A stretch of DNA of 64,000 nucleotides from the IMG/VR virus record IMGVR_UViG_3300020048_000003. One strand, given 5' to 3'. The notes under the pieces were generated by a model. That model ran no database searches. It was not told where the DNA came from and saw only the letters and a program-made list of their open reading frames with translations. Positions 37,810-52,646 of the stretch are shown here, in pieces. How positions within the stretch are numbered: position 1 is the first letter of the stretch; every line of letters starts with the position of its first letter. The DNA is from a virus. Made by a program: the position numbers and the translations under genes.

Positions 37810-37907
37810 TATTATGGTTATAATTATATTCTATAAATATAGGGGTAAACTTTTAATAAAAAAAGTTTTTATATATATGAATATAAAAAAAATTGTCTTT
37901 AATAGGT

Positions 37908-38201
37908 ATGAAGCATTTAAAATTATTTGAAGAAACAATCTTAAAGTTTCATATAGGTAATATCGTTAAGGTTACTAAGAATGTACGGTTGGATGAATAT
38001 AATCATATATTCAAAGTAGTAAATGTTAGGACTGATAATGTGAATAATACTTTTATGTATATGATAAAGGATATATCTAGATGTGATGATGGTATATTTT
38101 ATAGTGATTGTTGGGTATTTGATGATGATATTGAATTTGCGACAGTTGAAGATATAGAATTGGATGAGATGAAGGGTAATGCAAAAAAATATAATTTATG
38201 A
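37908..38201 (+). CDS. famA small protein (first of 42-gene array)
   Basis: track ORF 37893; likely start MKHLKLFEE...GNAKKYNL. Confidence 0.75.
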   Translation: MKHLKLFEETILKFHIGNIVKVTKNVRLDEYNHIFKVVNVRTDNVNNTFMYMIKDISRCDDGIFYSDCWVFDDDIEFATVEDIELDEMKGNAKKYNL

Positions 38202-38518
38202 AATATTTGAAAACATTTGAAAGTATTGATGAACCAAAAGAGGGTGATTATATTATTGCTAAATTGCCTAATCATTTGGCTTATAAAGATACTGCTGAGA
38301 TTTTTTGTCATAATAATATAGGTCAAATTATTGGTATTATTTATAATAATATTGATAAACCTATTTATAAGGTTAAGTATGAAAATGTACCTGCTGGACT
38401 TAAAATATCTAATTTAAATAACAATATTAGAGGGTTTTTTAAAAAGGATTTTGAATTGTGGAGTAAAGATAAAGAAGAATTAGAAGCAATGATAGCAGCG
38501 AAAAAATATAATATATGA
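38198..38518 (+). CDS. famA protein
   Basis: MKYLKTFES..EGDYII...NNIGQII...KEELEAMIAAKKYNI. Confidence 0.85.
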   Translation: MKYLKTFESIDEPKEGDYIIAKLPNHLAYKDTAEIFCHNNIGQIIGIIYNNIDKPIYKVKYENVPAGLKISNLNNNIRGFFKKDFELWSKDKEELEAMIAAKKYNI

Positions 38519-38598
38519 GATATATCAAAACATTTGAAAATAGTAATAAAAAAGAAGATTTATTTTTCAAATTAGATGCAAAAAAATACAATTTATGA
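38515..38598 (+). CDS. minimal famA cassette (27 aa: conserved N- and C-termini only)
   Basis: ATG AGA TAT ATC AAA ACA TTT GAA AAT ... GAT GCA AAA AAA TAC AAT TTA TGA = MRYIKTFENSNKKEDLFFKLDAKKYNL*. Confidence 0.5.
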   Translation: MRYIKTFENSNKKEDLFFKLDAKKYNL

Positions 38599-38936
38599 AA
38601 TATATTAAATTATTTGAAAGTGAGGATAAACCAAAGGTTGGTGATTATGTTATTTGTGATGAGTCTGAAGTATATATGTTAGATAATGAGTTGGATATAT
38701 TTTTAAGTAAGAATATTGGTAGGGTAGTTAATTATGATTTTGAAATGAAAAATGAATATATGGTACAATATGAGAATATTCCTAAAAATTTAGAACTTAA
38801 TTATTTTTCTCATGGTGATAGTTATGATGGTGGTTTTAAAAGATGTAGGGAGATGGCAAGAGATGAGATTAAGTTTTGGAATTCGGATAAGGAGACGGTT
38901 GAGGCTGCTCTTAATGCTCAAAAATATAATTTATAA
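38595..38936 (+). CDS. famA protein
   Basis: MKYIKLFES..KVGDYVIC..KNIGRVV...DKETVEAALNAQKYNL. Confidence 0.85.
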   Translation: MKYIKLFESEDKPKVGDYVICDESEVYMLDNELDIFLSKNIGRVVNYDFEMKNEYMVQYENIPKNLELNYFSHGDSYDGGFKRCREMARDEIKFWNSDKETVEAALNAQKYNL

Positions 38937-38938
38937 GA

Positions 38939-39298
38939 ATGAAGATAATGAGGTTTTATGAGAAAATATGGAATAATAAGGTTGAAACACCATATTGTGA
39001 TTATTATATTCCCTATGATGATTTGGTATTAATCAGGTATATTTTTGAAAAATTAGAAATCAATAGTGATTCTATAAATGTGATGATTACTACGATTAAG
39101 GAGTTTAAAGGTGAATTTGAAGGTTTATTTATTTTTTTATATTATGATGGTGATGGTGAATTTTGGTTAAATAGAAAAGATGTAAGTAAGGATGATATTA
39201 ATTGGGTTAGACAATATGAAGAAAAAGAAAATATTGAATATAAAGGTGAGATAAGATTGGAAGATCATGAGATTGAAGCAATAAAATATAATTTATAA
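38939..39298 (+). CDS. famA protein
   Basis: MKIMRFYEKI...HEIEAIKYNL. Confidence 0.8.
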   Translation: MKIMRFYEKIWNNKVETPYCDYYIPYDDLVLIRYIFEKLEINSDSINVMITTIKEFKGEFEGLFIFLYYDGDGEFWLNRKDVSKDDINWVRQYEEKENIEYKGEIRLEDHEIEAIKYNL

Positions 39299-39300
39299 AA

Positions 39301-39615
39301 ATGAAGATAATTAAACCTTATGAGGAATTAGATTTTACAAATTATAAAATTGGTAATTTATACAAATTATATGTTGATGGACATGATAAGGAAAAGAATA
39401 TTGATGTAAGTGGATTAGTGTTTATAGTTAAATTGGAAGTGAAGAGATTTGGTGGAAGTTATGGTCGGATAAGTGGTATTTGTGTTTCACCTGATGAGTA
39501 TAAGGGTCGGTATATGCCAATTAGGGGAGAAGAATTAGTGAAGTTATCTGAGCCTAGTGAAAAAGAAGTAGAAGAATATCATTTTTTAATGAATACAAGA
39601 AAATATAATTTATGA
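39301..39615 (+). CDS. famA protein
   Basis: MKIIKPYEE...FLMNTRKYNL. Confidence 0.75.
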   Translation: MKIIKPYEELDFTNYKIGNLYKLYVDGHDKEKNIDVSGLVFIVKLEVKRFGGSYGRISGICVSPDEYKGRYMPIRGEELVKLSEPSEKEVEEYHFLMNTRKYNL

Positions 39616-40004
39616 AGATAAGGAAAATATATGAAGTAAAATCATTTGCTACTGCGGAGGATGAGAAAAAATTTTTCAGATTCGTAGTAAATCGTTATAT
39701 AACTGATAAGGGTAATTTAAGAGATCCTTATATTACTACTCCTGTGAATAATAAATTTTCTTTTAATTTTGGTTTTTATAAAATTGATGAGAAAATTTTG
39801 AGAGAGGTAATGGAGTTAAAGGATTTTTTTAGTCAGACAATGAACTGTAATTTTACTATAACTTCTGGTGGAAATGAATTTGTAATTATAAGATTTGTAA
39901 CTGAATTTCAATATTTTTTTGATTTTTTGGATATAGAGGATTATAATAAAAAAACTATTGATGAGATATTGGTAGAGTTAGATGCAAAAAAGTACAATTT
40001 ATAA
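39612..40004 (+). CDS. famA protein
   Basis: MKIRKIYEV...LVELDAKKYNL. Confidence 0.75.
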   Translation: MKIRKIYEVKSFATAEDEKKFFRFVVNRYITDKGNLRDPYITTPVNNKFSFNFGFYKIDEKILREVMELKDFFSQTMNCNFTITSGGNEFVIIRFVTEFQYFFDFLDIEDYNKKTIDEILVELDAKKYNL

Positions 40005-40005
40005 A

Positions 40006-40347
40006 ATGAAGATAATGAAATTTAATGAGAGTGAAAGGTCTGTTATTGGTTGTTATTATGTACCTTATAATGTAGATCAAATTGAGTTAATAAAGAGAGT
40101 TTTAGAGAAACTAGATATTACTAATGCGAAAAGAATAATTAATCAAATGAGTGAATATCCTAATTGGAGAGGTTTTTATCTTTTTGTAAGTAAAATACTT
40201 GGTCAGAAAGATGGTAGTTTTTGGATAATAAGAGATGATCATGATCTGCTTGAATGGAAAAAACATATTACTAAAGATAAAATTGAGTATTTGGGAGAGT
40301 ATGAATTGGATGAACATGAAATTTCTGCGATAAAATATAATTTATAA
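40006..40347 (+). CDS. famA protein
   Basis: track ORF 39982 overlaps upstream gene; likely start MKIMKFNES...HEISAIKYNL. Confidence 0.75.
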   Translation: MKIMKFNESERSVIGCYYVPYNVDQIELIKRVLEKLDITNAKRIINQMSEYPNWRGFYLFVSKILGQKDGSFWIIRDDHDLLEWKKHITKDKIEYLGEYELDEHEISAIKYNL

Positions 40348-40751
40348 TGATAACGAAATATAAGATATTTGAGAGTAAGAATAGGGATTTAATAAGTAAT
40401 TTACAAAGTTATTTACAGAATAAACTTTGGGTTGATATTAAATTTAAGGAAGGTGCAGAAAAGTTGAGTTCTAAATTTAATGATATTTATTCTGGTGATC
40501 AGTCTATTATACCAGGTAAGACATATAAGTTAGCGATCTCAAAGAGGGAGGGAATAGAAGGTTGGTTTATAATATCTGGTGAGTATAAAGTTAATAGTCA
40601 AGAAGAGAAAGAAAGATTAGATGTAAGAGATGTTGCAAGTTATGCTTTATTATATTCACCATATCAATTTTTACAATTATTAAAATATGTTGACAAAGAA
40701 TATTTAGAAAATCTAAAAATGATGTCAGATGTAGAAAAATACAATTTATAA
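40347..40751 (+). CDS. famA protein
   Basis: MITKYKIFES...MSDVEKYNL. Confidence 0.75.
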   Translation: MITKYKIFESKNRDLISNLQSYLQNKLWVDIKFKEGAEKLSSKFNDIYSGDQSIIPGKTYKLAISKREGIEGWFIISGEYKVNSQEEKERLDVRDVASYALLYSPYQFLQLLKYVDKEYLENLKMMSDVEKYNL

Positions 40752-40753
40752 AT

Positions 40754-41140
40754 ATGAAACACATAAAAAAATTTGAAGCGTCATCAGCAAGTCTTTCTTC
40801 TGAATTTCTAGGTGATTATACGCCTGATAGGTATTGGAAGATTAGTTTATCTAGTCCAGAGTATGAAATAAGTATAAATAAGGTTGTAAAAAATGAAAAT
40901 TATAAAAAGAATTATTTGACTAAATTAGTTTTATTAAAGGGGTTATATCCAGATTCTAAATATTTTTATTTATTGGAGGATAATGGAACAGCAGAGTATG
41001 GTTCGGATAAAATTACTATATCTTATCACAATTCAAAAACACCATATGGTAATGCTGCTTTTATGGGTAAAGTTGAAGTTACAAAGGAGGAGATTGATGA
41101 GTGGTGGTTGGAACATGATATGGAAAAATATAATTTATAA
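40754..41140 (+). CDS. famA protein
   Basis: MKHIKKFEAS...LEHDMEKYNL. Confidence 0.8.
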   Translation: MKHIKKFEASSASLSSEFLGDYTPDRYWKISLSSPEYEISINKVVKNENYKKNYLTKLVLLKGLYPDSKYFYLLEDNGTAEYGSDKITISYHNSKTPYGNAAFMGKVEVTKEEIDEWWLEHDMEKYNL

Positions 41141-41166
41141 GATGAAGTATATAAAAAAATAAAAAT

Positions 41167-41433
41167 ATGAGAAATTATAAGAGTTTTATTGAGGAAGAGA
41201 TAGAGAAATTAAGTGTAGGTGATTTGGTTCTTGATGTTGCAAATAAGCCAACATTATTTTTTATTGATAAAATTTTCAATTCTCCTAGTGATGGTATTCG
41301 TTATGGTTTAAATTATGCGAGTTATCCTGATTTTTTTCACAGATGGTGTCATAAAGAAGATTTAATTAAGCCAAGTCAGGATCAGCTAGATGAATGGAAA
41401 ATGAAAAAAGATGCAGAAAAATATAATTTATAA
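41167..41433 (+). CDS. famA small protein
   Basis: MRNYKSFIEE..VGDLVL...MKKDAEKYNL. Confidence 0.75.
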   Translation: MRNYKSFIEEEIEKLSVGDLVLDVANKPTLFFIDKIFNSPSDGIRYGLNYASYPDFFHRWCHKEDLIKPSQDQLDEWKMKKDAEKYNL

Positions 41434-41434
41434 G

Positions 41435-41716
41435 ATGAAGTATATTAAGAAGTTTGAAAGTGAAGATAACACAGAAAATGCTAAAATTGGTGATTTAGTA
41501 AAATTTACAGTTGATAAAACATATTTTGGTGGTAAGTTAAATATTAATTCTTTAAATAATTTATGGAAAATTACAAAAATTGATTATTGGTTACTGAATT
41601 CTGAAACGGTTTATCAGTTAACAGATTTAAAATCTACTGGATATTATAAAGCGTTGAGACATGAATTTAAGTTAATACCTGATTATGAGATAGATGCAGA
41701 AAAATATAATTTATAA
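41435..41716 (+). CDS. famA small protein
   Basis: likely start MKYIKKFES..KIGDLVK...PDYEIDAEKYNL. Confidence 0.8.
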   Translation: MKYIKKFESEDNTENAKIGDLVKFTVDKTYFGGKLNINSLNNLWKITKIDYWLLNSETVYQLTDLKSTGYYKALRHEFKLIPDYEIDAEKYNL

Positions 41717-41717
41717 G

Positions 41718-42062
41718 ATGAAGTTTATTAAACAATATGAATATACATATAAGCGTAGAGTTAATCACAAAAAGTATGTGATAGCAAAAGAAATAATATC
41801 AAAAGAAAAGAGATATGATTATTGCATTTATAAAATAGATCCATACATAAATAGTACCGAATATTATATTACAATAACAAGGGTGATGTTTTTTGATAAA
41901 GATTGTAAAGAAATTAAAAAACCTAAAACATCAGATAAAGTTAAAGATAGTTATTGGATATTTGATAAAGAAATTAATACATATTATTATGAAACTGATA
42001 CTTTAAATGATGCTATAGAACATTTAGAATTATCATTTGCTGGAAATAAATACAATTTATAA
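41718..42062 (+). CDS. famA protein
   Basis: likely start MKFIKQYEY...LSFAGNKYNL. Confidence 0.75.
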   Translation: MKFIKQYEYTYKRRVNHKKYVIAKEIISKEKRYDYCIYKIDPYINSTEYYITITRVMFFDKDCKEIKKPKTSDKVKDSYWIFDKEINTYYYETDTLNDAIEHLELSFAGNKYNL

Positions 42063-42170
42063 TGAAGTATATTAAAGAATTTGAGGCGAGGAAGGCTATT
42101 TTATACCAAGTAATGTAAAAAAGATTGTTGATGAGATTAATATGAATACGGATGCAAATAAATATAATTT
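42063..42170 (+). pseudogene. degenerate famA cassette
   Basis: ATGAAGTATATTAAAGAATTTGAG start, stop after 18 codons, C-terminal ...DANKYNL remnant retained. Confidence 0.5.
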
Positions 42171-42512
42171 ATGATAACTAAATTTAGAATATTTGAGAGT
42201 AATGAAGATGAGCCTGAAGTGGGTGATTATGTTATTTGTTATGAAGATGGACCAGTTCGTGATACTAGGATAAATACTTTTTTACTTGATAATATTGGTC
42301 AAATAATAGAAATAGATAATGAAGATGAACAGGAAAAATGGAAATTTTTGGTACAATTTGAAAATTTTTCAGATACTTATGTAAAAGCACATTATTTTAA
42401 TGATTATAATAAAGATGGTTGTAGGAAAATGTCAAAAGATGATATTAAATTTTGGAATTCAGATAGAAATATGTTAGAGGCAATAATTATCGCGAAAAAA
42501 TATAATTTATGA
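42171..42512 (+). CDS. famA protein (MITKFRIFES subtype)
   Basis: EVGDYVIC...DNIGQII...KDGCRKMSKDDIKFWNSDRNMLEAIIIAKKYNL. Confidence 0.85.
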   Translation: MITKFRIFESNEDEPEVGDYVICYEDGPVRDTRINTFLLDNIGQIIEIDNEDEQEKWKFLVQFENFSDTYVKAHYFNDYNKDGCRKMSKDDIKFWNSDRNMLEAIIIAKKYNL

Positions 42513-42862
42513 TAACTAAATTTAGAATATTTGAAAGTAATGAAGATGAGCCTAAATTAGGTGATTATGTTATTTGTAATGAATCTGAGACAGAGTTTGG
42601 TAGTATTAGTTCAGATAATTATCGTTTTCAGGTAGATGAGTTTTTAAGTAAAAATGTTGGACAAATAATAGAATTAATAGAAGATGATAGATGTGAATTT
42701 TTAGTACAATTTAATAATGTTCCAGATGATATAGCACCAATTTATTTTAATCATGGCAATAAAGATGGTTGTAGAAAAATGTCTAGAAGTGAAATTGAAT
42801 TTTGGAATTCAGATAGAGAAGTTTTAGAAGTAATGGTTGATGCAGAAAAATATAATTTATAA
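42509..42862 (+). CDS. famA protein (close paralog of 42171..42512)
   Basis: identical 45-nt start MITKFRIFESNEDEP; ...KDGCRKMSRSEIEFWNSDREVLEVMVDAEKYNL. Confidence 0.85.
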   Translation: MITKFRIFESNEDEPKLGDYVICNESETEFGSISSDNYRFQVDEFLSKNVGQIIELIEDDRCEFLVQFNNVPDDIAPIYFNHGNKDGCRKMSRSEIEFWNSDREVLEVMVDAEKYNL

Positions 42863-43197
42863 TGAGATATATTAAGAAATTTGAAAGTAATAATTCTTTA
42901 ACTAATTTAAGGATTGGTGATATTGTTGTGTGTATTCAAAAAGATGGAATTAATAGTTTTACATTAGAGAATGGTGAAAGTTATAAAATTGAGCGAATTC
43001 TAAAAATGAGAGATGATGAAAGAAAATTAGATGATGTTGAGAAAATTTCTGATTATAGTATTGAAAAATATTATTTTACTCTTTATGATATGGATGGTGG
43101 ATTATTATTGGATTCTGGAAAAGTAGGTGCTTTACTATTTCAGGCTATAAGGTTTACAACTGAATATGAGTATAGTGCAAATAAATATAATTTATGA
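42862..43197 (+). CDS. famA protein
   Basis: MRYIKKFES..RIGDIVVC...YEYSANKYNL. Confidence 0.8.
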   Translation: MRYIKKFESNNSLTNLRIGDIVVCIQKDGINSFTLENGESYKIERILKMRDDERKLDDVEKISDYSIEKYYFTLYDMDGGLLLDSGKVGALLFQAIRFTTEYEYSANKYNL

Positions 43198-43490
43198 AAT
43201 TTCTAAAATCATTTGAACATATATTAACTACTAAATATCACTCATATTATATGAGGTTTAAGGTTGGTGATTATGTTATTCGTAAAGATGTTAATCAAAG
43301 GTTTTATCCAGAAGAAATACTTTATATATATGATATTGATCCACAGGACACAGAATTAACATATAGAATGAGAGATATTAGAATTTCGGAAAAGGATTTT
43401 AATCCAAAATATGATACACATTTTAGTAATGGTAAAGATATAAGATTAGCAACGGATGAGGAGTTGTACGTGGTAAAATATAATTTATAA
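43194..43490 (+). CDS. famA small protein
   Basis: MKFLKSFEH..KVGDYVI...EELYVVKYNL. Confidence 0.8.
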   Translation: MKFLKSFEHILTTKYHSYYMRFKVGDYVIRKDVNQRFYPEEILYIYDIDPQDTELTYRMRDIRISEKDFNPKYDTHFSNGKDIRLATDEELYVVKYNL

Positions 43491-43491
43491 G

Positions 43492-43794
43492 ATGATAATA
43501 AAAACTTTTGAAAAATATACAAGTGATGATTTTAAATCATATATTATTTGGAAAGGTAAAAAAATATTTATGATATTATCTGTGATACAGGTCACTGAAA
43601 ATCATTTAAAATTTAAAAAATTATATAATTATTATGGTAATGGTAAAATTGAAAAAATAAGAGATGAACAAGCAATGAGCATTTATCATAATTATGATCA
43701 AATAAAAAGACATATCGTATACGAAAGTGATAATTTACAAGATTGTATTGATATGCTATCAGATATAGATATTGCAATAAAATATAATTTATAA
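43492..43794 (+). CDS. famA small protein
   Basis: MIIKTFEKY...DIDIAIKYNL. Confidence 0.75.
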   Translation: MIIKTFEKYTSDDFKSYIIWKGKKIFMILSVIQVTENHLKFKKLYNYYGNGKIEKIRDEQAMSIYHNYDQIKRHIVYESDNLQDCIDMLSDIDIAIKYNL

Positions 43795-43798
43795 ATTT

Positions 43799-44299
43799 AT
43801 GAATCATATAAAATTATTTGAAAATTTCAACAAATACAATATAGATGATATGATTATTGTGACTAATAAAAAATTAGGTCTTGATAATAGGCTGGTTGTT
43901 ATAGATTCCATGTTGAAAAATAGAAATGGTGTTGAGTTTAAAGTTTGGAATGCATCAAAAGATTGTAAAGATGAAGAGTTTACAATATCAGAAAATGATA
44001 TAGTTAAAAAAATGCCATCTTATAAAAAAGGTGATTATATTTTATTAAAAGATTATTTTACTGGTAAACCAAAGCCAATGATAATGTCTGTACACATAGA
44101 ATGTGGTTTATTTGAAATGTGTGATTTAGAAGGATTTCTATTTCAGTACCAAAAGGAAAATAATGTAGAAGAGTTAGAATGGGTTGAAGAACCTTATTAC
44201 AATATAATTAGAAAGATGACTAAACGAGATTTAGAGAAATATAAATCCATAATAGAAGAATATCATCTAAAAAAAGATTCAAATAAATACAATTTATGA
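43799..44299 (+). CDS. famA protein (166 aa)
   Basis: MNHIKLFENF...KKGDYIL...KKDSNKYNL. Confidence 0.8.
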   Translation: MNHIKLFENFNKYNIDDMIIVTNKKLGLDNRLVVIDSMLKNRNGVEFKVWNASKDCKDEEFTISENDIVKKMPSYKKGDYILLKDYFTGKPKPMIMSVHIECGLFEMCDLEGFLFQYQKENNVEELEWVEEPYYNIIRKMTKRDLEKYKSIIEEYHLKKDSNKYNL

Positions 44300-44715
44300 G
44301 AAATTATAATGAATTTATAAATGAGCAAAAAATAATATCACTAAAATATTTTGGTGATGAGCCATTTACATTTACAATAAAAAAGTTCATTGGAGTAGAT
44401 CCTAATCAAAAATTAGAAAAATTTATTAAAAAGTTAAGAGAATATTTTGATTATGAGGATTGTAATAGAATTAAAAAATATATTCTTCTTGAACCTCAAT
44501 ATTCTATACAATTTTGGTTATATGAAACTGCGGGTAATGCAGGTTCAAGAAGAACAACAGCAAAATTTCAGACGAAATATTATAATATATGGGGATCAAG
44601 GAATAATAAAAATGGTGAAAATAGTTATACCTTAGATGAATTTTTAGAACTTGGAATAGAAGGTATAAAAGAAGATATTGAAGCAAAAGAAGCAGCAAAT
44701 AAATATAATTTATGA
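44296..44715 (+). CDS. famA protein
   Basis: MRNYNEFINE...KEAANKYNL. Confidence 0.75.
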   Translation: MRNYNEFINEQKIISLKYFGDEPFTFTIKKFIGVDPNQKLEKFIKKLREYFDYEDCNRIKKYILLEPQYSIQFWLYETAGNAGSRRTTAKFQTKYYNIWGSRNNKNGENSYTLDEFLELGIEGIKEDIEAKEAANKYNL

Positions 44716-46483: not shown

Positions 46484-46761
46484 TGATAAAAAAATATAAT
46501 ATTTTCAAAAAAAAATTTAAGATTGGTGATTTAGTAAAACTAAAATCTGAAGGATATATTCCTGCTTATTGGGCATATTATAAAAATAGAGATAATATTG
46601 ATTTAAGTGTATTGGAAGTAGTATCGGTGGATTCAACAGATAAATTAGCATATGAAATTAAACCTATTAAACAGAATACTTTGGCGGAGTATTGGTTTGA
46701 AGAGTATATGTTGGAAAAATTATCTGATTATGAAATTGCAGCAATAAAATATAATTTATAA
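46483..46761 (+). CDS. famA small protein
   Basis: MIKKYNIF..KIGDLVK...LSDYEIAAIKYNL. Confidence 0.8.
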   Translation: MIKKYNIFKKKFKIGDLVKLKSEGYIPAYWAYYKNRDNIDLSVLEVVSVDSTDKLAYEIKPIKQNTLAEYWFEEYMLEKLSDYEIAAIKYNL

Positions 46762-47315
46762 TGAAGTATATTAAAGAATATTTTAATCCTATAAAGGATC
46801 ACAAAGAAAATAGATTACCAACAATAGGTGATTATGTGATATTTACTGATGATTTTTATGATGAAAAAATCAAAGATATTAGTTATGTTGGAAAGCATAG
46901 TTTAGATAATAAATTATATAGAAATGTAATTGGTGAAATTGTTGATTATTATCCTGGTTATCCAACAAAATATTTTGTATATTTTGATAAAAATGAATTT
47001 TGGCGTGAACAATATGTGGCTTCTATAGAAGATATTAAAAGTTATTCTAAAGTAAAAGAAGATTTAGAAAATCTACCAAATGTGGGAGATTATGTAATAT
47101 TAGGTAGTGATAATTATATTTATATTTGTAAAGTAATATCAAAAGAAAAATCAGATTTAAGGTGGACTAATTATAATTATACCGTTAAAAAGTTAAATCC
47201 AGGTCCGCATGATGGTAAAGGTGTAATTAATACGAATGATGATTCAATAAGATATTGGTCTAAAGATATAGGAGAATTAGAAACTATAATAGATGCAAAA
47301 AAATATAATTTATGA
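46761..47315 (+). CDS. famA protein with internal duplication (184 aa)
   Basis: MKYIKEYFN; two GDYVI segments (PTIGDYVIFTDD / PNVGDYVILGSD); ...ETIIDAKKYNL. Confidence 0.8.
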   Translation: MKYIKEYFNPIKDHKENRLPTIGDYVIFTDDFYDEKIKDISYVGKHSLDNKLYRNVIGEIVDYYPGYPTKYFVYFDKNEFWREQYVASIEDIKSYSKVKEDLENLPNVGDYVILGSDNYIYICKVISKEKSDLRWTNYNYTVKKLNPGPHDGKGVINTNDDSIRYWSKDIGELETIIDAKKYNL

Positions 47316-47575
47316 GATATATAAAAACATTTGAAGTTAATATAGGTGAACCAAGATTTTCATATGATACATTGGTAAAAATGAAACATCCTAATAGTGA
47401 TCATATTTTCATTGTTGATTTTAGTAAATATGATTATAATGCAAGTGAATGGGTTTATTATGTTATGAATGTTAATATAGATAAGACTTCTCTTACTGGA
47501 GGAATTTGGGCAAAAGAAAGTAATTTAAGATTTTTAACAGAATTAGAAAAAGATATGGAGAAATATAATTTATGA
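47312..47575 (+). CDS. famA small protein
   Basis: MRYIKTFEV...LEKDMEKYNL. Confidence 0.8.
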   Translation: MRYIKTFEVNIGEPRFSYDTLVKMKHPNSDHIFIVDFSKYDYNASEWVYYVMNVNIDKTSLTGGIWAKESNLRFLTELEKDMEKYNL

Positions 47576-47883
47576 AACATTTAAACGAATATAAAAGAAT
47601 TGATTATAGTGATTTTTACAAATGTAAAGTCGGTGATTATGTAATAGTTAAATCAAGAATAGGTGGATATGCACCTGAATATTTAGATTTTGCTAGTAAT
47701 AGAATTGGAGAAATAATAGGTATAAATTTAGAAAAGAAAACAATTTGGGTTCAATTTGATTCTCCTTGGAATAATGGTAATAAAAATGATACTAATAATT
47801 TTAAAGCTTCTCAAGTTGAATTTTGGTCAAAAGATAAGGAAGATTTAGAAGGAATATTAGTTGGAAGAAAATATAATTTATAA
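47572..47883 (+). CDS. famA protein
   Basis: MKHLNEYKR..KVGDYVI..NRIGEII...SKDKEDLEGILVGRKYNL. Confidence 0.85.
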   Translation: MKHLNEYKRIDYSDFYKCKVGDYVIVKSRIGGYAPEYLDFASNRIGEIIGINLEKKTIWVQFDSPWNNGNKNDTNNFKASQVEFWSKDKEDLEGILVGRKYNL

Positions 47884-47905
47884 TTAAAAAATTGTCTTTA
47901 ATAGT

Positions 47906-47935
47906 AATGGGAACTTTTGTTCTCATTTTTTTTTG
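47906..47935 (+). terminator. intra-array hairpin + T8 (terminator-like)
   Basis: ATGGGAAC-tttt-GTTCTCAT TTTTTTTT in the 79-nt gap between two famA genes. Confidence 0.5.
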
Positions 47936-47962
47936 CGGTAAATTTTTATATATAACTATAAT

Positions 47963-48370
47963 ATGAAATATATCAAATTATTTGAAGAAAAAGAATTAAT
48001 AAATGGTCCGGAGATTGGTGATTATGTGTTATTAGATAGGGAAGAATTATGGTATGATGATGGTAGTAATGAAGCTAGTCTTGATAATTATCTTTCTACT
48101 AATCTTGGTTTAGTTATAGGATTTGAAGATGGTTGGAATACGTCATTAGTTGATTATAAGAAGTCAAAACGTAATAATGATATGTTCTATGTATTGCAGT
48201 ATTCGGATTTACCAGATAAAGTAAAAGAGTATGCTTATCCTTATTTGGGTAGAACTATTGATGGTAGATATCAAGATAATATATTATCTGTTCCAAGAGA
48301 TATGATTAAGTTTTTTGGCTCAGATAAAGAGATAGAACTTCAAAAAGCAACAATTAAATATAATTTATGA
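47963..48370 (+). CDS. famA protein
   Basis: MKYIKLFEE..EIGDYVL...KATIKYNL. Confidence 0.8.
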   Translation: MKYIKLFEEKELINGPEIGDYVLLDREELWYDDGSNEASLDNYLSTNLGLVIGFEDGWNTSLVDYKKSKRNNDMFYVLQYSDLPDKVKEYAYPYLGRTIDGRYQDNILSVPRDMIKFFGSDKEIELQKATIKYNL

Positions 48371-48867
48371 AATACATTAAAAAGTTTGAAAATGATAGAT
48401 ATTATTCATCTGATTCTCAGAAATTAGAAGGTTATAACGGTAAGATTCTTATTAATATACCATCTACAACATATTTTAAGAGTGCAATTAGATTTCAAAT
48501 TGTTTTTGTTCATGAAGTATATAAACACAAACTTATATTTAAAGGGTCTGATAATGAAGATAGATATGAATATCAAGTTCTCGCAGATAATATTATTAGA
48601 TGTAATTCAGATGATTCTATTAATTTTACTTATAGATGGGATCAGGCTCATAATGAAGATGGATTTAAAAGATTAGAATTTATAACGGTTGAACAATTTT
48701 ATAATCAACATACGGATGTTTTTGTAGGATTATTAGAAGCAGCAATAGAAGAGAGTAATAATACTAAATTTTCAGAGCAACATAGATCTGAGGTAAAGAA
48801 GATAATAGATAAAATGACAATACCTGAAACTGAACATATTATTGGAGCAAATAAATACAATTTATGA
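48367..48867 (+). CDS. famA protein (166 aa)
   Basis: MKYIKKFEND...HIIGANKYNL. Confidence 0.8.
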   Translation: MKYIKKFENDRYYSSDSQKLEGYNGKILINIPSTTYFKSAIRFQIVFVHEVYKHKLIFKGSDNEDRYEYQVLADNIIRCNSDDSINFTYRWDQAHNEDGFKRLEFITVEQFYNQHTDVFVGLLEAAIEESNNTKFSEQHRSEVKKIIDKMTIPETEHIIGANKYNL

Positions 48868-49247
48868 AATATATTAAATTATTTGAAAGTGAATATAAAG
48901 GAGATTTTTGGCTCATTAGAGCAGATGATCCGTATTTATCTATTAGTATAGATAAACTTAAATTACCATTAAAACAAAAAAATTATTTAAAAAATAATGG
49001 ATATATAAACGGTAAGGATACATATTATGATTTTGATCATAACAATAATGGTGAAATTCTTAAAATCAAAAAAGTTTATATACCAGATGCAAATTTTGAT
49101 GTAGGTAAATATTCTGCTAGTTGGATGCCTTATAAAGAAAATGATAATAAATATGCATTTGAGACATTTGAAACAATGGGGTTAGTTTATAAAGGTGAAG
49201 TTGAAGTTGAAGATTGGGAAGTTGAAGCATATAAATATAATCTATAA
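48864..49247 (+). CDS. famA protein
   Basis: MKYIKLFES...WEVEAYKYNL. Confidence 0.8.
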   Translation: MKYIKLFESEYKGDFWLIRADDPYLSISIDKLKLPLKQKNYLKNNGYINGKDTYYDFDHNNNGEILKIKKVYIPDANFDVGKYSASWMPYKENDNKYAFETFETMGLVYKGEVEVEDWEVEAYKYNL

Positions 49248-49249
49248 AG

Positions 49250-49522
49250 ATGAAATATATTAAAACATTTGAAATTATGAATAGTGATGGTATGTTGATT
49301 AATCCAATATATAAAGTTGGTGACTATATCTTAGTTGATAGTAGATTAACAAGTAAACATAATGATCGTGTTGAGAATGGAATACTAATAATTGAAGGTA
49401 TAACAGATTATTGGTATGTCGCACGATATTTAGAAAAACAATATGTTGAATGGATTTATGAAGATGAAATTGTTAGAAAATTAGATGATTATGAAATTGA
49501 AGCATTAAAATATAATCTCTGA
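49250..49522 (+). CDS. famA small protein
   Basis: MKYIKTFEI..KVGDYIL...LDDYEIEALKYNL. Confidence 0.85.
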   Translation: MKYIKTFEIMNSDGMLINPIYKVGDYILVDSRLTSKHNDRVENGILIIEGITDYWYVARYLEKQYVEWIYEDEIVRKLDDYEIEALKYNL

Positions 49523-49557
49523 AAGAGATGTTTACAAAAGTAAAATAATTTATAAAA

Positions 49558-49908
49558 ATGAAGATAGAAAGATTTAATGAGAGTGCTACAAATCCTGAAC
49601 CGAAACGTATAGATTATATGGAAGAGTGTAAAAGGCTTTTTAGAGAAGTATGGGAAGATAAATTATTATTAGTCACCGTGAATATTCAGCCAACAAATGA
49701 TTTTGAAGGGTATCAAATGTGGTGTAGAGTTAATCGTGATATAAAAAATGACACTCTTAAAGATTTTGTAAATTTATTTGAATTGGTAGATAAACTTAAT
49801 TTTAAATATAGATTTGGCAATGAAAGATTAGATATTTATATGGATAATATAGCATCATTTATAGATGAAATGAATTTGATATTAAATGTAAAAAAATATA
49901 ATTTATGA
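49558..49908 (+). CDS. famA protein
   Basis: MKIERFNES...LILNVKKYNL. Confidence 0.75.
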   Translation: MKIERFNESATNPEPKRIDYMEECKRLFREVWEDKLLLVTVNIQPTNDFEGYQMWCRVNRDIKNDTLKDFVNLFELVDKLNFKYRFGNERLDIYMDNIASFIDEMNLILNVKKYNL

Positions 49909-49962
49909 TAGAATATTTTTGGTTTTTGATATAATAGGTGCTACAAAAAAATATAACATATA

Positions 49963-50142
49963 ATGAAAAAATTTACAGAAACAGCAACATATATACAACC
50001 AGAAAAACAGTATAGAAAATATTTCAAATTTATTGAAGATAAATTTTTAAATATCCCTTTTGGTCGTTTAGTTTTTGATGAGATAAATGATTCTGTTGTT
50101 AAAATATATTTAAGGCGTGATATGAAAAAATACAATTTATAA
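49963..50142 (+). CDS. short famA member (59 aa, below track cutoff)
   Basis: manual: MKKFTETATYIQPEK...VKIYLRRDMKKYNL*; preceded by remnant ...GATKKYNI*. Confidence 0.55.
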   Translation: MKKFTETATYIQPEKQYRKYFKFIEDKFLNIPFGRLVFDEINDSVVKIYLRRDMKKYNL

Positions 50143-50675
50143 TGAAGTATATAAAAGAATTTGAAGTGAGTGGATATTTTGTTAATAAAACAAAGGATTT
50201 TATAGTTAGTGATTTTGTTAAACATACAACAAATTTTCAAGATACAAATATTTATAGAGTAAAAAGAGTTGGAAAAGGAACTAAACTTAAGAAGTATTAT
50301 ATTGAACTTTATCAAAATGGTGATGGTCAAGGTTTTTGGAGAAGTGGAAATTCGTTAGAATTGGCAGATCAGTCACCTGCATTGAAATATGAATCTGGTG
50401 ATTATGTGTTTGTTAATAATTATGATTGGGTAAATAAATATTATCGTAGTCCTTATTGTAAAATAAAATTTCTAAATTCTAAGAAGGTTATACGCGCTTG
50501 GGATTATATGGTCACTACATTTGAAACAAAACAAGTAAGTTCTGGTAATCCAGTTTCAAGCAAAGAAAGGGAGATTGATGCTTATTTAAATCAATATGAT
50601 ATAAAGAGAAAAATGACACAAGATGAGATTGATACATTTGATGCTCGTTGTATTGCAACAAAATACAATTTATAA
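50142..50675 (+). CDS. famA protein (177 aa)
   Basis: MKYIKEFEV...ESGDYVFV...ARCIATKYNL. Confidence 0.8.
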   Translation: MKYIKEFEVSGYFVNKTKDFIVSDFVKHTTNFQDTNIYRVKRVGKGTKLKKYYIELYQNGDGQGFWRSGNSLELADQSPALKYESGDYVFVNNYDWVNKYYRSPYCKIKFLNSKKVIRAWDYMVTTFETKQVSSGNPVSSKEREIDAYLNQYDIKRKMTQDEIDTFDARCIATKYNL

Positions 50676-50942
50676 ATGAAATATATAAAGACATTTGAAT
50701 TACAATATCAAACAAATGAAAATAATCCAAAGTTTAAGGAAGGAGATTATGTGTTTGTATTACAAACAGCTTATACTGGAATGATATTTCAAATAAATAG
50801 TAAGTTATATGATCATAATGGAAAAACATTTAAATATTTTGTTAGTAGTATAGATCAAGAGCATTTTGATGGATGGGTTAAAGAATATCAATTGAAGTTG
50901 GTACCTGATTACGAAGTTGCCGCACATAAATATAATTTGTAA
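50676..50942 (+). CDS. famA small protein
   Basis: MKYIKTFEL..KEGDYVFV...PDYEVAAHKYNL. Confidence 0.85.
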   Translation: MKYIKTFELQYQTNENNPKFKEGDYVFVLQTAYTGMIFQINSKLYDHNGKTFKYFVSSIDQEHFDGWVKEYQLKLVPDYEVAAHKYNL

Positions 50943-50944
50943 AG

Positions 50945-51247
50945 ATGATAAAATTATTTGAACAATTTAATGAAGAAAGAGTTATTTGTTTACGCAAGTT
51001 ATATGATTATCTTATTAGTAATGGTATTAGTGATATAAATTTCATAGAGAGTATTCCATTAATAAATACCACCTATTTTAGTGTATCATTAAGTAATGAT
51101 ATTTATAAAGATATTATTATTTCATGTCTCTCAGATGATAGATATGCTGTTATAAATAACAATTTTAGATATCATAATTTTGATGGTGTTGTGGATTTTT
51201 TGAAAGATTTAGAATTAAAACATAGTGCAAAAAAATATAATATATGA
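50945..51247 (+). CDS. famA small protein
   Basis: MIKLFEQFNE...LKHSAKKYNI. Confidence 0.75.
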   Translation: MIKLFEQFNEERVICLRKLYDYLISNGISDINFIESIPLINTTYFSVSLSNDIYKDIIISCLSDDRYAVINNNFRYHNFDGVVDFLKDLELKHSAKKYNI

Positions 51248-51591
51248 TAAAAGTATTTGAATTATTTAATACAAATAATGAAAATAGAATTTTCATCACC
51301 AAAAGTAAAGTTGATGGTCCTATATGTTATCGTCCAAATAAGATACCAGATGAATATAAACTTGCTTATGAAAATATGAAATTTCATGTTGGTGATCATG
51401 TTTGGTATTCTGAAAATTTTCAATTTAAATATGCTGAACATAGAATAATTGAAATTGTTGAATTGTTTTGTGAAGAAGAAGATGAATACTATTTATTTAA
51501 AAATAATGAAAATAGTGGAACATGGGCAGGCGAAAAAGAATTAATATTAATACCTGATTATGAGGTAGATGCAGAAAAATATAATTTATGA
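51244..51591 (+). CDS. famA protein
   Basis: MIKVFELFN...HVGDHVW...PDYEVDAEKYNL. Confidence 0.8.
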   Translation: MIKVFELFNTNNENRIFITKSKVDGPICYRPNKIPDEYKLAYENMKFHVGDHVWYSENFQFKYAEHRIIEIVELFCEEEDEYYLFKNNENSGTWAGEKELILIPDYEVDAEKYNL

Positions 51592-51905
51592 AACATATAA
51601 AATTATTTGAAGATTTATATATCACTTGGGATAGTGTGGATAAGAGATCACCAGTTGATTATAAATATCAATTGGGTGATTATGTAAAAGTAAAAAATCC
51701 AAGATATTATAGATGGCTTAGTGCTGGATATTCTAGTGATACGATTTGTATAATTTGTCTTGTAAATACTATACCGTATAATGATCATAAATATGCAATT
51801 GTTCCAATAGAAGCACCTAATAGTAGTTTTGAAGAGTGGGTAACTGAAGATGAAATAGAACTTGCGGCTGATTATGAAATTAGTGCGATGAAATATAATT
51901 TATAA
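51588..51905 (+). CDS. famA protein
   Basis: MKHIKLFED..QLGDYVKV...ADYEISAMKYNL. Confidence 0.85.
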   Translation: MKHIKLFEDLYITWDSVDKRSPVDYKYQLGDYVKVKNPRYYRWLSAGYSSDTICIICLVNTIPYNDHKYAIVPIEAPNSSFEEWVTEDEIELAADYEISAMKYNL

Positions 51906-51908
51906 TTT

Positions 51909-52274
51909 ATGATAATAAAATTCAAAATTTTTGAGAGTATAGATATGACTGATAATAACCAAAAAATAAATTGGTTAGATTACGGTGAGCCGACGTATCA
52001 TGATTATGTTGTTGCATCTGAACCATTGTGGAGTTTAGATCAAAATATGTTCTTTTTAAGTAATATAGGACAAATTCAATCTATTTCTAATGTTAAAGGT
52101 AAGCCTTTATATGGTGTATATTATGACAAAGAAATTCCAAATATGCCTAATTTTAAAATTGGTAAGGATCGTACTGTGTTTTGGCGCAAAGATATAAAAC
52201 ATTGGTCAAAGAATAAAGAGGATTTAGAACAATTTGTTGAACTTTATGATGATATATCTAAATATAATTTATAA
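51909..52274 (+). CDS. famA protein
   Basis: MIIKFKIFES...SNIGQIQ...SKNKEDLEQFVELYDDISKYNL. Confidence 0.85.
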   Translation: MIIKFKIFESIDMTDNNQKINWLDYGEPTYHDYVVASEPLWSLDQNMFFLSNIGQIQSISNVKGKPLYGVYYDKEIPNMPNFKIGKDRTVFWRKDIKHWSKNKEDLEQFVELYDDISKYNL

Positions 52275-52277
52275 GAA

Positions 52278-52646
52278 ATGAAGTATATAAAATTATTTGA
52301 ATATAAAGATAAAAATAAAATTGAAGTAGCAAAATTTGTTTTACTTAAAGCCGAAAGAGGAAATAGTTATTGGAATAATTGGTATGGTATAAATCTTGGG
52401 AAATATCCTGATGATGATGAATCATATAAAATCGGTATATTAACTCCTAATGCAGAAGAACTTGATACTAATCATTATATGAAAGGAAAGTTTTTACATG
52501 TAAATAAATATTATCTTGAATTTTACGAAACCATTGATAGTTTTTATCAAGATTTATCAATTTATTATGATATAGATTTTGACGAATTAAAGGAACAAAT
52601 TGAAATGTTTGAAGCAATTGTAAATGCTGAAAAGTATAATCTTTAA
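52278..52646 (+). CDS. famA protein
   Basis: MKYIKLFEY...FEAIVNAEKYNL; 3' end overlaps convergent gene. Confidence 0.8.
   Translation: MKYIKLFEYKDKNKIEVAKFVLLKAERGNSYWNNWYGINLGKYPDDDESYKIGILTPNAEELDTNHYMKGKFLHVNKYYLEFYETIDSFYQDLSIYYDIDFDELKEQIEMFEAIVNAEKYNL

Follow-up and report, generated by a model that had tools for sequence, protein, structure and literature searches.

Fixed ends and variable cores in a large family of small proteins, arrayed head to tail in a probable T4-type megaphage

Introduction

Why would a phage carry dozens of small genes in a row whose products begin and end alike and differ in between? The question is raised by a 64,000-nt stretch of viral DNA (IMG/VR record IMGVR_UViG_3300020048_000003), all of which was analysed and which we refer to as the window. 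A first-pass annotation of its letters had described a single 42-gene array of one family, here called famA, with about 75 copies in the window, and had likened it to integron cassettes, orphan immunity arrays and viral accordion families.

Results

The array was borne out: 42 consecutive + strand ORFs of 27–184 aa lie within 37908–52646, the first of them starting most likely at ATG 37908 rather than at the TTG at 37893 proposed earlier. All 42 end in (K/N)-Y-N-(L/I)-stop (KYNL in 39, KYNI in two, NYNL in one). The terminus YN[LIM] closes 71 ORFs of 50 aa or longer across the window, every one of them on the + strand, and such ORFs numbered zero in each of 20 codon-triplet shuffles. Together with a 27-aa gene and several decayed copies, these ORFs confirmed the estimate of about 75 copies. 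The family, with its fixed ends (below, N-tag and C-tag) and variable cores set head to tail, is genuine and very large, and the whole phage genome probably holds more than 100 famA genes.

The further famA blocks, all on the + strand, were found as annotated. Eight genes and a truncated 34-aa copy (3450–3555) belong to the block at 292–3453, with promoter motifs at 277 and 3160. Four genes occupy 7301–8728; the promoter motif at 7057 stands ahead of an N-tag-like gene. The two famA genes at 11554–12233 follow an N-tag-only gene (11023–11547) in a unit spanning 11023–12233, with a promoter motif at 10999. The largest upstream block, of about 19 genes, lies at 13485–19774 (promoter motif at 13471), and its member at 16334–16666 has the N-tag and lacks the C-tag.

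The main block proved less uniform than annotated. The strict start M-K-(Y/H)-I-K-x-F-E, ascribed to every gene, was found in 12 of 42; nine more carry conservative variants (MRYIK, MKHLK, MKFLK), and the other 21 have related but shifted starts (MITKFRIFE, MIKLFE, MKIMKFNE, MRNYNEFINE). Likewise, the ATGA overlap claimed for every junction occurs at 17 of 41, the remainder being TAATG overlaps (6), spacers of 0–4 nt (13) and gaps of 26–108 nt (5). Nor is the block one array, since a 79-nt gap (47884–47962) with a terminator-like hairpin and a promoter motif divides it into two transcription units. Operon 1 (37908–47883, + strand) comprises 29 translationally coupled famA genes, all ending (K/N)YN(L/I) and most joined by junctions of at most 4 nt; operon 2 (47963–52646, + strand) comprises 13. 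The late-type promoter motif TTATATATA, of the form [AT]ATATATA, heads operon 1 at 37870–37878 and recurs at 47947–47955, 7 nt upstream of the operon 2 ATG, and the hairpin with its T-run closes operon 1 at 47906–47927 (all + strand).

Operon 1 contains, on the + strand, a 27-aa ‘tags-only’ member, MRYIKTFENSNKKEDLFFKLDAKKYNL (38515–38598), in which the N-tag is joined to the C-terminal helix with no core. Junction sequences revealed a stub ORF, MKYIKK*, the decayed remnant of the 5' end of a member since lost (41142–41162, + strand), and three-frame translation revealed a frameshifted relic (42062–42174, + strand) reading MKYIKEFEARKAILYQVM* and then, in another frame, ...NMNTDANKYNL*.

The interiors are as diverged as the annotation held: identity reaches 54% in the closest paralog pair and is about 30% or undetectable in most others. 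An iterative profile search with the tags included recruited 120 of 139 members. Once the tags were trimmed, 45 of the 71 window members were unlinked to the main subfamily, and their cores had no mutual similarity. Models of the main subfamily gave its core the five-stranded topology of an SH3-like/PsaE-Tudor-KOW small barrel. A shared small beta-barrel, which had been raised as a prediction, thus holds for only about a third of members, as judged by structure prediction and tag-trimmed profile links. The SH3-like subfamily alone amounts to 2,868 clusters at 50% identity in public metagenomes. Among 56 larger relatives from related contigs, ankyrin repeats (4/56) and LRRs (2/56) were found between the same tags, and Pfam scans of these 56 gave only ankyrin, LRR and ExoX-like_C matches. 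Ten window members had no match in Pfam or PHROGs, in line with the first-pass annotation, and we found no literature match for the family. This tag-bracketed mini-protein family is undescribed.

In 72 genes, YNL has an unvarying Tyr and Asn. Synonymous codons at these positions (TAC 14%, AAC 19%) are no rarer than in gene bodies; therefore, selection acts on the protein. For the Leu, five codons are in use and I or M occasionally takes its place, and N-terminal substitutions are conservative in protein terms (K/R, Y/H/F, I/L, F/Y). We concluded that the fixed ends are conserved as protein and not as DNA recombination sites. Proteins with the N-tag only or the C-tag only exist; the tags are separable from the core and from one another.

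An AlphaFold2 model, built like the others as a monomer, predicted for the SH3-like member at 38595–38936 (+ strand) a disordered N-terminal peptide (residues 1–9, pLDDT <50), a small beta-barrel, and a C-terminal helix (residues 99–111) that ends KYNL. The helix is packed on the barrel (pLDDT 84–92), and the last residues, with their free YNL end, are again of low pLDDT. A low-confidence model of a second famA subfamily also placed a helix at the C-terminus.

The famA junction pattern was absent from all 185,579 genomes of bacteria and archaea searched and matched 30 times in IMG/VR viral contigs. On a related contig a T4-type portal (PF07230, E 3.7e-63) adjoins famA genes. A famA array (L037) shares one 155-kb contig with genes for the portal, the head protease (phrog_207), the major capsid protein (phrog_138) and a gp55-like late sigma factor (phrog_234; L085); these head genes lie on related contigs, not on the window’s own. 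This portal and its counterpart in the 735-kb Mahaphage genome LR756501 share 62% identity, and the Mahaphage clade has Bacteroidetes as predicted hosts (PMC7162821). TAnnTTTG promoter elements are enriched. The source is probably a T4-type megaphage, a relative of the Mahaphage clade, and its host probably a Bacteroidota bacterium; the related contigs, the portal match and the TAnnTTTG elements thus uphold the earlier proposal of a Bacteroidota host or its phage.

The motif TATATATA heads every famA block in the window, and the same motif precedes portal, protease and capsid genes. In related contigs, [AT]ATATATA was present upstream of the portal in 27 of 30 cases, the protease-scaffold gene in 18 of 24 and the major capsid gene in 18 of 18, and before clamp loader genes in only 2 of 14. 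It is enriched 15-fold upstream of operon-leading genes and stands at 24 of 45 famA array leaders overall. The T4 late promoter is TATAAATA, one base apart from this motif. Because famA shares the motif with portal, protease and capsid genes, its members are probably late genes. This timing rests on analogy with T4, since the motif is palindromic and also stands ahead of other kinds of gene. Starts without a Shine-Dalgarno (SD) sequence, noted at first pass, were confirmed: SD-like motifs precede just 13 of 194 genes, and A-rich sequence lies 5' of the start codons. Array leaders have the promoter motif 4–9 nt from the ATG, implying near-leaderless mRNAs.

Discussion

We tentatively favour reading famA as a repertoire of binders, all docked by their two tags on a single common partner, for which the assembling capsid is the likeliest candidate. 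The two operons, translationally coupled and each under a late-type promoter, would yield proteins of three parts: an exposed, amphipathic N-terminal peptide of 8–10 residues (consensus M-K-Y-I-K-x-F-E); a variable, putatively protein-binding core (an SH3-like barrel in about one third, ankyrin or LRR in relatives, otherwise unrecognised folds); and an amphipathic C-terminal helix with a free -K-Y-N-L carboxyl end. The tags would act as docking peptides, so that one shared partner could handle more than 100 different cores. By comparison with the capsid-targeting sequence of T4 internal proteins, that partner may be the assembling prohead or capsid, in which case the repertoire would travel with the virion. 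The variable cores might then bind host proteins, in anti-defence or takeover, as the next infection begins.

The T4 internal proteins are diverse defence proteins that have in common only an N-terminal capsid-targeting sequence, MKTYQEFIAE (PMC3012670, PMC8442874). FamA resembles these proteins (IPI, IPII, IPIII and the polymorphic IP loci of T-even phages) in that both go with T4-type heads, both consist of small, diverse, non-homologous proteins sharing an N-terminal peptide of about 10 residues (the only common element in T4), and both are probably expressed late. T4 internal proteins are thought to be anti-defence effectors. Three famA N-termini fit the pattern M-[KR]-x-Y-x-x-F-I-x-E, against 0.0125 expected. 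One fitting member begins MRNYKSFIEE (41167–41433, + strand), and the member at 44296–44715 (+ strand) begins MRNYNEFINE, identical to the T4 sequence at six of ten residues. The consensus N-tag matches that sequence at three of ten residues (mean 2.6 vs 1.8 for unrelated N-termini). It has no counterpart of the (L/I)-x-E protease site at the end of the T4 sequence: in the I-K-x-F-E consensus the position three before Glu8 varies (Leu in 9%), and a fit is seen only in the FIxE variants. The scaffold protein of the clade contains repeated YIAE/YLAE motifs.

Other features set the two groups apart. T4 internal proteins are highly basic (PMC8442874), a DNA-associated character that is absent from famA, whose proteins are small, soluble and mostly acidic (median pI 5.8; 75% below pI 7). 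They number three in T4, whereas the window holds about 75 famA genes, and famA differs further in its long translationally coupled arrays and in an extra, more strongly conserved C-terminal helix ending YNL-COOH. To our knowledge, T4 internal proteins have no conserved C-terminal tag, and more than 100 different cargo proteins per virion would be far beyond any case known to us.

Large protein cargoes do occur in other heads. In giant phages the head can contain about 50 protein species, with ejection proteins exceeding 40 MDa (PMC7411985), and in SPN3US and phiKZ dozens of proteins, many from paralog families, are packaged and delivered into the host (PMC7411985, PMC5694885). The ejection and inner-body proteins of these two phages belong to an unrelated head lineage, are larger than famA and are processed at protease sites. 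We know of no description of a shared terminal tag pair or of tandem mini-gene arrays in them. Encapsulin cargo-loading peptides and the peroxisomal signals PTS1 and PTS2 (of C-terminal tripeptide or N-terminal nonapeptide type) are likewise short terminal peptides that address unrelated proteins to one shell or compartment; they have no sequence similarity to the famA tags and serve as analogies only.

The poor fit of famA acidity and of the C-tag to T4 internal proteins would be explained if the repertoire stayed unpackaged in the cytoplasm, a possibility that we regard as doubtful. Here the cores would bind diverse host or rival-phage proteins, and the tags would dock on a shared non-capsid partner, such as a protease, a chaperone, a phage-built compartment or, for the N-tag, the C-helix of the next protein; targets would be inhibited, degraded or relocated. 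Small, acidic, soluble proteins are typical of phage inhibitors, SH3-like, ankyrin and LRR cores are classic protein-binding scaffolds, and a free hydrophobic C-terminal tripeptide with a disordered N-peptide, as modelled, would be typical docking motifs. Functionally, famA would then resemble F-box adaptors or the ankyrin-repeat/PRANC families of poxviruses, in which variable repeats are combined with a short conserved module at one end that binds a single common cellular machine. The poxvirus adaptors are, like famA, a large diversified family with variable binding repeats and a conserved terminal module; they differ in belonging to eukaryotic viruses and in that the module folds into a domain of some 40 residues binding Skp1, whereas famA arrays are polycistronic. 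No homology between the two was detected. Against a cytoplasmic role, host-takeover proteins are usually early and famA shares a late-type promoter with head genes; moreover, no candidate partner (PDZ or TPR protein, protease) was identified.

It is unlikely that famA is simply an old, fast-evolving paralog family whose termini, as ancestral caps in the structure of a single fold, persist for folding or stability and serve no shared partner or address, with cores merely diverged past recognition. The recruitment of most members by tag-inclusive profiles, the packing of the C-terminal helix on the barrel and the terminal helix of the second subfamily are what such a family would show. It would not readily account for the same tags around ankyrin and LRR repeats, independent folds that need no such caps, nor for an N-tag predicted to be disordered, the loss of links to the main subfamily on trimming, the separate occurrence of tags on other proteins, or a tags-only gene that is kept intact.

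Least probable, and by our estimate quite improbable, is that the junction works as nucleic acid, either as a homology patch of about 40 nt through which recombination would shuffle, add or remove whole cassettes, or as an AU-rich re-initiation or leaderless signal for SD-less translation, with the peptides as by-products. In its favour, every DNA repeat in the block has a junction at its centre (40–95 nt, 60–92% identity), stubs and relics sit exactly at junctions, a natural two-copy fusion exists (P0017), spacing is tight, start regions are A-rich and SD-less and array leaders near-leaderless. Against it, YNL synonymous sites vary as in gene bodies around invariant amino acids, N-terminal substitutions are conservative, the register varies (ATGA, TAATG, TAA + 1–4 nt) so that no fixed RNA element is preserved, there is no preference for the Ile codon able to recreate the promoter motif, a gene and its best paralog seldom lie side by side (3 observed, 0.8 expected), and the compared assemblies are collinear.

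The systems to which the array had first been likened were not supported either. Integron cassettes share with famA head-to-tail ORFs in one orientation, unrelated contents and conserved boundaries; in famA, however, the boundaries lie inside coding sequence, selected as amino acids, and there is no intergenic space. With 36 of 41 junctions at most 4 nt, attC sites would not fit, inverted repeats local to the junctions were not detected, and scans of 20 larger non-famA ORFs yielded no integrase, the only matches being a GIY-YIG endonuclease and a histidine kinase. A further comparison is with PeSL mobile regulatory cassettes, reportedly described by Arbiol et al. 2010 in hyperplastic regions of T4-type phages; there too, novel small ORFs of T4-type genomes are bordered by short conserved sequences that may favour the shuffling of modules. 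PeSL is an intergenic early promoter with a stem-loop, whereas the famA conserved sequence is coding; the arrays have no intergenic space, their late-type promoter motifs are confined to the heads of arrays, and one hairpin is all that the block contains. Neither toxin nor immunity families were matched by the ten window members or the 56 larger relatives, which argues against orphan immunity arrays and polymorphic toxins.

A viral accordion was likewise not supported, as there are no recent tandem copies: paralogs at about 30% identity (best pair 54%) are ancient, and three independent assemblies from several samples are collinear at 99.7–100%. The 184-aa two-domain member at 46761–47315 (+ strand) has a 57% identical ortholog in a related 531-kb contig (L005, 15047–15598), the only clear ortholog within the 20 kb of that contig sampled.

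Structure of the famA array

The first-pass annotation had claimed a 42-gene array of famA, the family of mini-proteins ending in KYNL, and about 75 famA copies in the window. Both counts were confirmed. The block contained exactly 42 consecutive + strand ORFs of 27–184 aa within 37908–52646, and every one carried the C-terminal signature (KYNL in 39, KYNI in two, NYNL in one). Window-wide, 71 ORFs of at least 50 aa ended in YN[L/I/M]; all were on the + strand, and each of 20 codon-triplet shuffles yielded none. The 27-aa gene and several decayed copies bring the total to about 75. Decayed copies included a stub reading MKYIKK-stop (41142–41162), a frameshifted relic (42062–42174), a truncated copy of 34 aa (about 3450–3555), and two copies with a TTG start (7301 and 17927) that we counted as decayed. 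The famA ORFs are real genes, because ORFs of ~100 codons are very improbable at 25% G+C, because public gene callers found the same ORFs in independent assemblies, and because the codon pattern at conserved residues is that of translated sequence.

Two other claims held in part. The start M-K-(Y/H)-I-K-x-F-E, ascribed to every gene, was strict in 12 of the 42 and conservatively varied in nine, whereas 21 genes had related but shifted forms (e.g., MITKFRIFE, MIKLFE, MKIMKFNE, MRNYNEFINE). The ATGA overlap said to run throughout was present at 17 of 41 junctions, the boundaries between one gene’s KYNL end and the next gene’s start; the rest comprised six TAATG junctions, 13 with spacers of 0–4 nt, and five gaps of 26–108 nt. 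The block consisted of two units, operon 1 (37908–47883) and operon 2 (47963–52646), and the gap separating them (47884–47962) held a terminator-like hairpin (47906–47927) and a promoter motif (47947–47955). The sequence lets us predict with confidence that the genes of a famA array are tightly coupled and share a polycistronic transcript.

Two identical 17-mers in direct orientation (AAAATTGTCTTTAATAG; 37889–37905 and 47888–47904, +) bracket the 10-kb operon 1, one immediately ahead of its first gene and the other immediately behind its last. As a general signal the repeat was rejected, being present in this genome only among all fetched loci.

Conservation of the terminal tags

Consensus sequences for the fixed head peptide (N-tag) and the fixed tail peptide (C-tag) were built from 251 famA members (window plus related loci). 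The N-terminal consensus was M-K(76%)-Y(54%)/H-I(50%)/L-K(75%)-x-F(52%)/Y-E(71%), and the C-terminal consensus was ...E-E-L-E-L-x-L-D-A(47%)-N/K-K(94%)-Y(92%)/F-N(100%)-L(84%)/I; conservation at the C-terminus thus extends beyond four residues to an amphipathic helix of ~15. The Tyr and Asn of YNL were unchanged in 72 genes, encoded by TAT (62) or TAC (10) and by AAT (58) or AAC (14), respectively, and the synonymous share at these codons equaled or exceeded that of gene bodies. The last Leu used five codons and was sometimes replaced by Ile or Met, and N-terminal substitutions were conservative (K/R, Y/H/F, I/L, F/Y). We concluded that conservation of the famA tags acts on the protein. The free synonymous variation and the conservative replacements argue against the junction as primarily a promoter, recombination site, or RNA element. 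Accordingly, the level of synonymous variation at the K-Y-N codons led us to reject both TATAAT within them as an internal promoter and the junction as a DNA recombination site. Some C-terminal segments reach 92% identity as DNA, which raised gene conversion; this too was rejected, because identical residues and strong codon bias explain the match.

The tags were also found separately. A 410-aa protein in L085 (the head module of a related contig) and window genes 11023–11547 and 16334–16666 had the N-tag only, and several genes in two other related loci (L007 and L039) had the C-tag only. Gene 38515–38598 (27 aa) was essentially N-tag plus C-helix, without core or linker domain. The occurrence of tags with differing cores and of separate tags thus reveals a design of tag, interchangeable core, tag, and showed that the tags are independent of core fold. 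A lysozyme with an N-tag-like start (related locus L017) was considered as a packaged lysin and rejected: it has a membrane-anchor-like segment and looks like an ordinary endolysin.

Core domains

When the tags were trimmed, 26 of the 71 window members still joined a main subfamily, characterized by the motifs GDYVIC, NIGQI, and FWS-x-KEDLE; the other 45 were mostly singletons or pairs. The main subfamily core is modeled as an SH3-like barrel, an assignment made at fold level only. The AlphaFold2 model of 38595–38936 (35 input sequences, pLDDT 78.9, pTM 0.73) comprised a disordered N-tag (residues 1–9, pLDDT <50), a small beta-barrel, a well-packed C-terminal helix (residues 99–111), and a floppy end, and the N-tag is predicted to be exposed. 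For a second, non-SH3 subfamily, the AlphaFold2 model was built from just five sequences and was of low confidence (pLDDT 61.7), so that it played no part in fold assignment; a non-SH3 member used as query in a word-indexed search for homologs matched only itself. A structural search of BFVD gave nothing significant, and ten famA members had no Pfam or PHROGs match. Among 56 larger tagged proteins from related contigs, Pfam identified ankyrin repeats in four, LRRs in two, and an ExoX-like C-terminal motif in one, the others being unmatched. The recognizable cores are in all cases protein-binding scaffolds. As a group, famA proteins are soluble, and most of them are acidic (median pI 5.8).

The second family, famB

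A second mega-family, famB, comprised about 79 genes of 55–146 aa on both strands (4059–6000, 8703–10949, 12228–13205, 20391–25416, 30583–37809, 54131–61213, and 63315–63877). At the C-terminus its proteins have a basic helix, (E/Y)-R-K-x-K-L-x-K-(L/I)-N-E, and then a short tail of variable sequence, and many start K-(I/V)-G-D-x-V-x-C; neighboring genes often overlap by ~14–30 nt. These proteins are rich in Cys and have a basic median pI (9.1); ten members had no Pfam match. An hhalign comparison of famA with famB aligned 16 columns around K-(I/V)-G-D-x-V-I-C, the first strand only, with a probability of 50%. The two tag-defined families (~75 famA and ~79 famB) fill about 150 of the 194 genes of the 64-kb window; therefore, a sizeable coding share goes to diversified small proteins of one plan.

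Promoters and expression

The 8-mer TATATATA was 15-fold enriched upstream of operon-leading genes (63 observed vs 4.2 expected). A single base separates it from the T4 late promoter, TATAAATA. Calibration on orthologous genes in about 40 related loci placed the motif upstream of the portal in 27/30 loci, the protease-scaffold in 18/24, the major head protein in 18/18, the clamp loader in 2/14, and the gp55-like sigma in 5/36, the last at 54–79 nt from the ATG. Clade-wide the motif, [AT]ATATATA, is palindromic and lies 16–24 nt from the ATG at the portal, protease, and most other genes. It stood at the head of each famA block in the window (277, 3160, 7057, 10999, 13471, 37870, 47947). Overall, 24 of 45 famA array leaders had it, usually just 4–9 nt from the ATG, a spacing that implies nearly leaderless transcripts and is shared by two small head-region genes. 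The host-type element TAnnTTTG preceded 6/17 famB leaders vs 2/45 famA leaders (Fisher p = 0.004). By analogy with T4, and with the caveat that the motif is palindromic, we infer that the famA operons are probably late genes, expressed together with the head genes.

Source phage and relatives

The earlier guess of a Bacteroidota phage gained support: the Bacteroidota-type promoter element TAnnTTTG was enriched upstream of genes (TATCTTTG 17-fold), SD motifs were nearly absent (upstream of 13/194 genes), and the region upstream of start codons was A-rich. The window has 23–33% G+C, and its genes are almost all ~60–130 aa. Lak-like TAG recoding (an alternative genetic code) appears unlikely, as TAG ends 12 of the 194 called ORFs and nothing points to it. 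Identical proteins were found on 209-kb and 51-kb metagenome contigs from one sample (ERZ27262924), both of which break inside the array, and in a second run (SRR7760390); these assemblies were 99.7–100% identical to the window. On a related 531-kb contig (23% G+C) the array was denser still: of 55 genes in 20 kb, 46 belonged to it.

The junction DNA pattern AAATAYAAYYTATGAAATAYATHAAA matched 30 stretches of viral contigs in IMG/VR, the largest of 330 kb; it was absent from all 185,579 species genomes of bacteria and archaea. On IMG/VR contigs with this pattern, famA genes adjoin a T4-type portal (PF07230, E 3.7e-63), and a famA array (L037) and the head module L085 lie together on a single 155-kb contig. 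The module encodes a portal, a head-maturation protease joined to a repeat-rich scaffold, a major head protein, a head-closure protein, a clamp loader, and a gp55-like late sigma factor. These head genes were observed on related contigs, outside the window’s own. In the protease fusion (L085 12317–14689), the long scaffold-like region contains ~12 tandem (Y/F)-S-E-Y-(I/L)-A-E-N-L-D-x-x-I repeats followed by a Pro/Gln/Ala-rich linker, and the repeated (I/L)-A-E fits the T4 protease cleavage consensus.

No known phage genomes exceed those of Mahaphage-type megaphages, whose genes are for the most part unexplained. The portal shared 62% identity with its counterpart in LR756501 (an uncultured phage of 735 kb), 47–49% with those of 634–642-kb genomes, and 32% with those of Lak phages. 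The portal-matching genomes belong to the Mahaphage clade, with Bacteroidetes as predicted hosts (PMC7162821). Dozens of IMG metagenomes contained close portal relatives (74–98% identity). No famA gene lay in the 41 kb surrounding the 735-kb genome’s portal.

Age and spread of famA

The closest paralogs (42171 and 42509) were 54% identical and typical pairs about 30%, and best paralogs were adjacent slightly above chance (3 observed vs 0.8 expected). Between the window and the sampled 20 kb of the 531-kb contig we found one clear ortholog pair (46761–47315 and L005 15047–15598, 57% identity). By these comparisons, famA is an old, deeply diverged repertoire with no recent accordion; the suggested likeness to viral accordion families fell away, recent copies being absent.

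A profile search with the SH3-like subfamily returned at least 2,868 cluster representatives at 50% identity (E ≤1e-3), 1,817 of them at E ≤1e-10. The best 150 matches were nearly all 99–131 aa, and all matches inspected had the N-tag and a KYNL-type end. In the phage records of INPHARED (50,697), neither the block by megablast nor two members by tblastn gave a match even at E 1, and a literature search on ‘KYNL’ found no relevant paper and no mention of famA. We concluded that famA is a real and so far undescribed family, very large and widespread; even among giant phages, its scale and dual-tag architecture are unusual.

Strains within the phage population differ. Between assemblies, a stretch of about 100 nt within the famB array (window 23720–23829, L001 16583–16677) did not align. 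A third sample contained a 97%-identical variant of 38541–39368 with indels (L043), and its protein P0002 was 91% identical with one extra NELD repeat. In the metagenome protein P0017 (243 aa), two famA copies are naturally fused head to tail, with loss of the stop and start at their junction, and a second metagenome protein, P0059 (124 aa), has an internal duplication of the GKPEVGDYVICTD segment; rearrangements of junction and core therefore do occur.

Proposed role of the tags

Among known systems, famA would work most like the T4 internal proteins with a capsid-targeting sequence, or like viral adaptor multigene families. The proposed resemblance to integron cassettes failed for want of attC, of intergenic space, and of an integrase among 20 of the larger non-famA ORFs, and membership tests placed famA outside toxin or immunity arrays, contrary to the orphan immunity comparison, and outside PeSL cassettes. 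Cleavage site and charge also set famA apart from true T4 internal proteins. As judged from the sequences, famA may belong to a known kind, the tagged, diversified phage effector families.

The simplest reading is that the two tags would be docking peptides by which a single partner recognizes very diverse cores, and the best candidate for that partner would be the assembling head. In T4, varied internal proteins with defense roles have in common just an N-terminal capsid-targeting sequence, MKTYQEFIAE (PMC3012670, PMC8442874), to which the famA consensus bears a loose likeness (M, K, and F7 in common). A variant class from these arrays fitting M-[KR]-x-Y-x-x-F-I-x-E (MRNYNEFINE at 44296, MRNYKSFIEE at 41167, and MKNYNNFINE in related locus L038; 3 observed vs 0.0125 expected) appears closer to the T4 sequence than the consensus does. 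Giant-phage heads have room for ~50 protein species and >40 MDa of ejection proteins (PMC7411985). Several points stand against a capsid address. The consensus N-tag lacks an (L/I)-x-E site, and the many Y(I/L)AE repeats of the scaffold suggest that the clade’s protease keeps T4-like specificity; famA proteins are acidic, unlike the highly basic T4 internal proteins; and the C-tag has no T4 counterpart, while the number of cargo species would be unprecedented. We therefore hold the capsid-address model tentatively, as possible rather than probable. If the tags are address peptides, they might offer a tool to load cargo into large capsids.

A broader and more doubtful version of the capsid-address model is that the tags form a general address system loading >100 late-made binders (with SH3-like, ankyrin, LRR, or unknown folds) in or on the giant capsid, thereby arming each infection with a pre-made, co-delivered arsenal to bind and neutralize targets in host defense or takeover, with famB as the early-expressed counterpart. 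If true, this would be a phage-encoded ‘repertoire’ strategy at unprecedented scale.

It is also conceivable, albeit rather unlikely, that famA is a non-packaged repertoire of adaptors or inhibitors whose tags dock on another partner or on each other. We consider it unlikely that the tags are mere structural caps in an old family. A primary role of the junction at the nucleic-acid level is very improbable, as synonymous codons vary freely while amino acids are kept. Junction-centered homology may still help cassette turnover as a side effect: all DNA repeats in the block are junction-centered, and stubs, relics, and a natural two-copy fusion are present.

If the cores bind host proteins, famA would be a large untapped source of inhibitors of Bacteroidota defense or physiology. 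Even with a mundane function, famA, the late-promoter motif, and the tag signature would serve as metagenome markers for this phage group.

Other features of the window

A stretch of 733 nt without an ORF (27262–27994, +) had G+C above its surroundings, a folding energy well below that of shuffles (MFE −194.9 vs −146.5 ± 5.5 kcal/mol, z = −8.8), and a strong hairpin with a U-run at its 3' end; it matched no Rfam family at E up to 0.1 and is a candidate large structured phage non-coding RNA. A tRNA at 29301–29388 (−) was detected by Rfam (36 bits) and missed by ARAGORN; by eye its anticodon loop is CUUGAAA (UGA, Ser-type, long extra arm), and it adjoins three to four direct repeats of GATTTTCAAAAATTTTTTTGGGGAAAATTT (about 29180–29300). 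The phage also encodes the core of a histidine kinase (252 aa; HisKA + HATPase_c; 29537–30295, −) that lacks a sensor domain, and a cREC_REC receiver-like gene lies ~4 kb past the window end (L009). A 291-aa GIY-YIG/NUMOD homing endonuclease (61467–62342, +) is followed on its 3' side by a cold-shock-protein-like gene (62411–62611, +). Related contigs carried HNH homing endonucleases and an intein-containing ClpB-like ATPase (L013).
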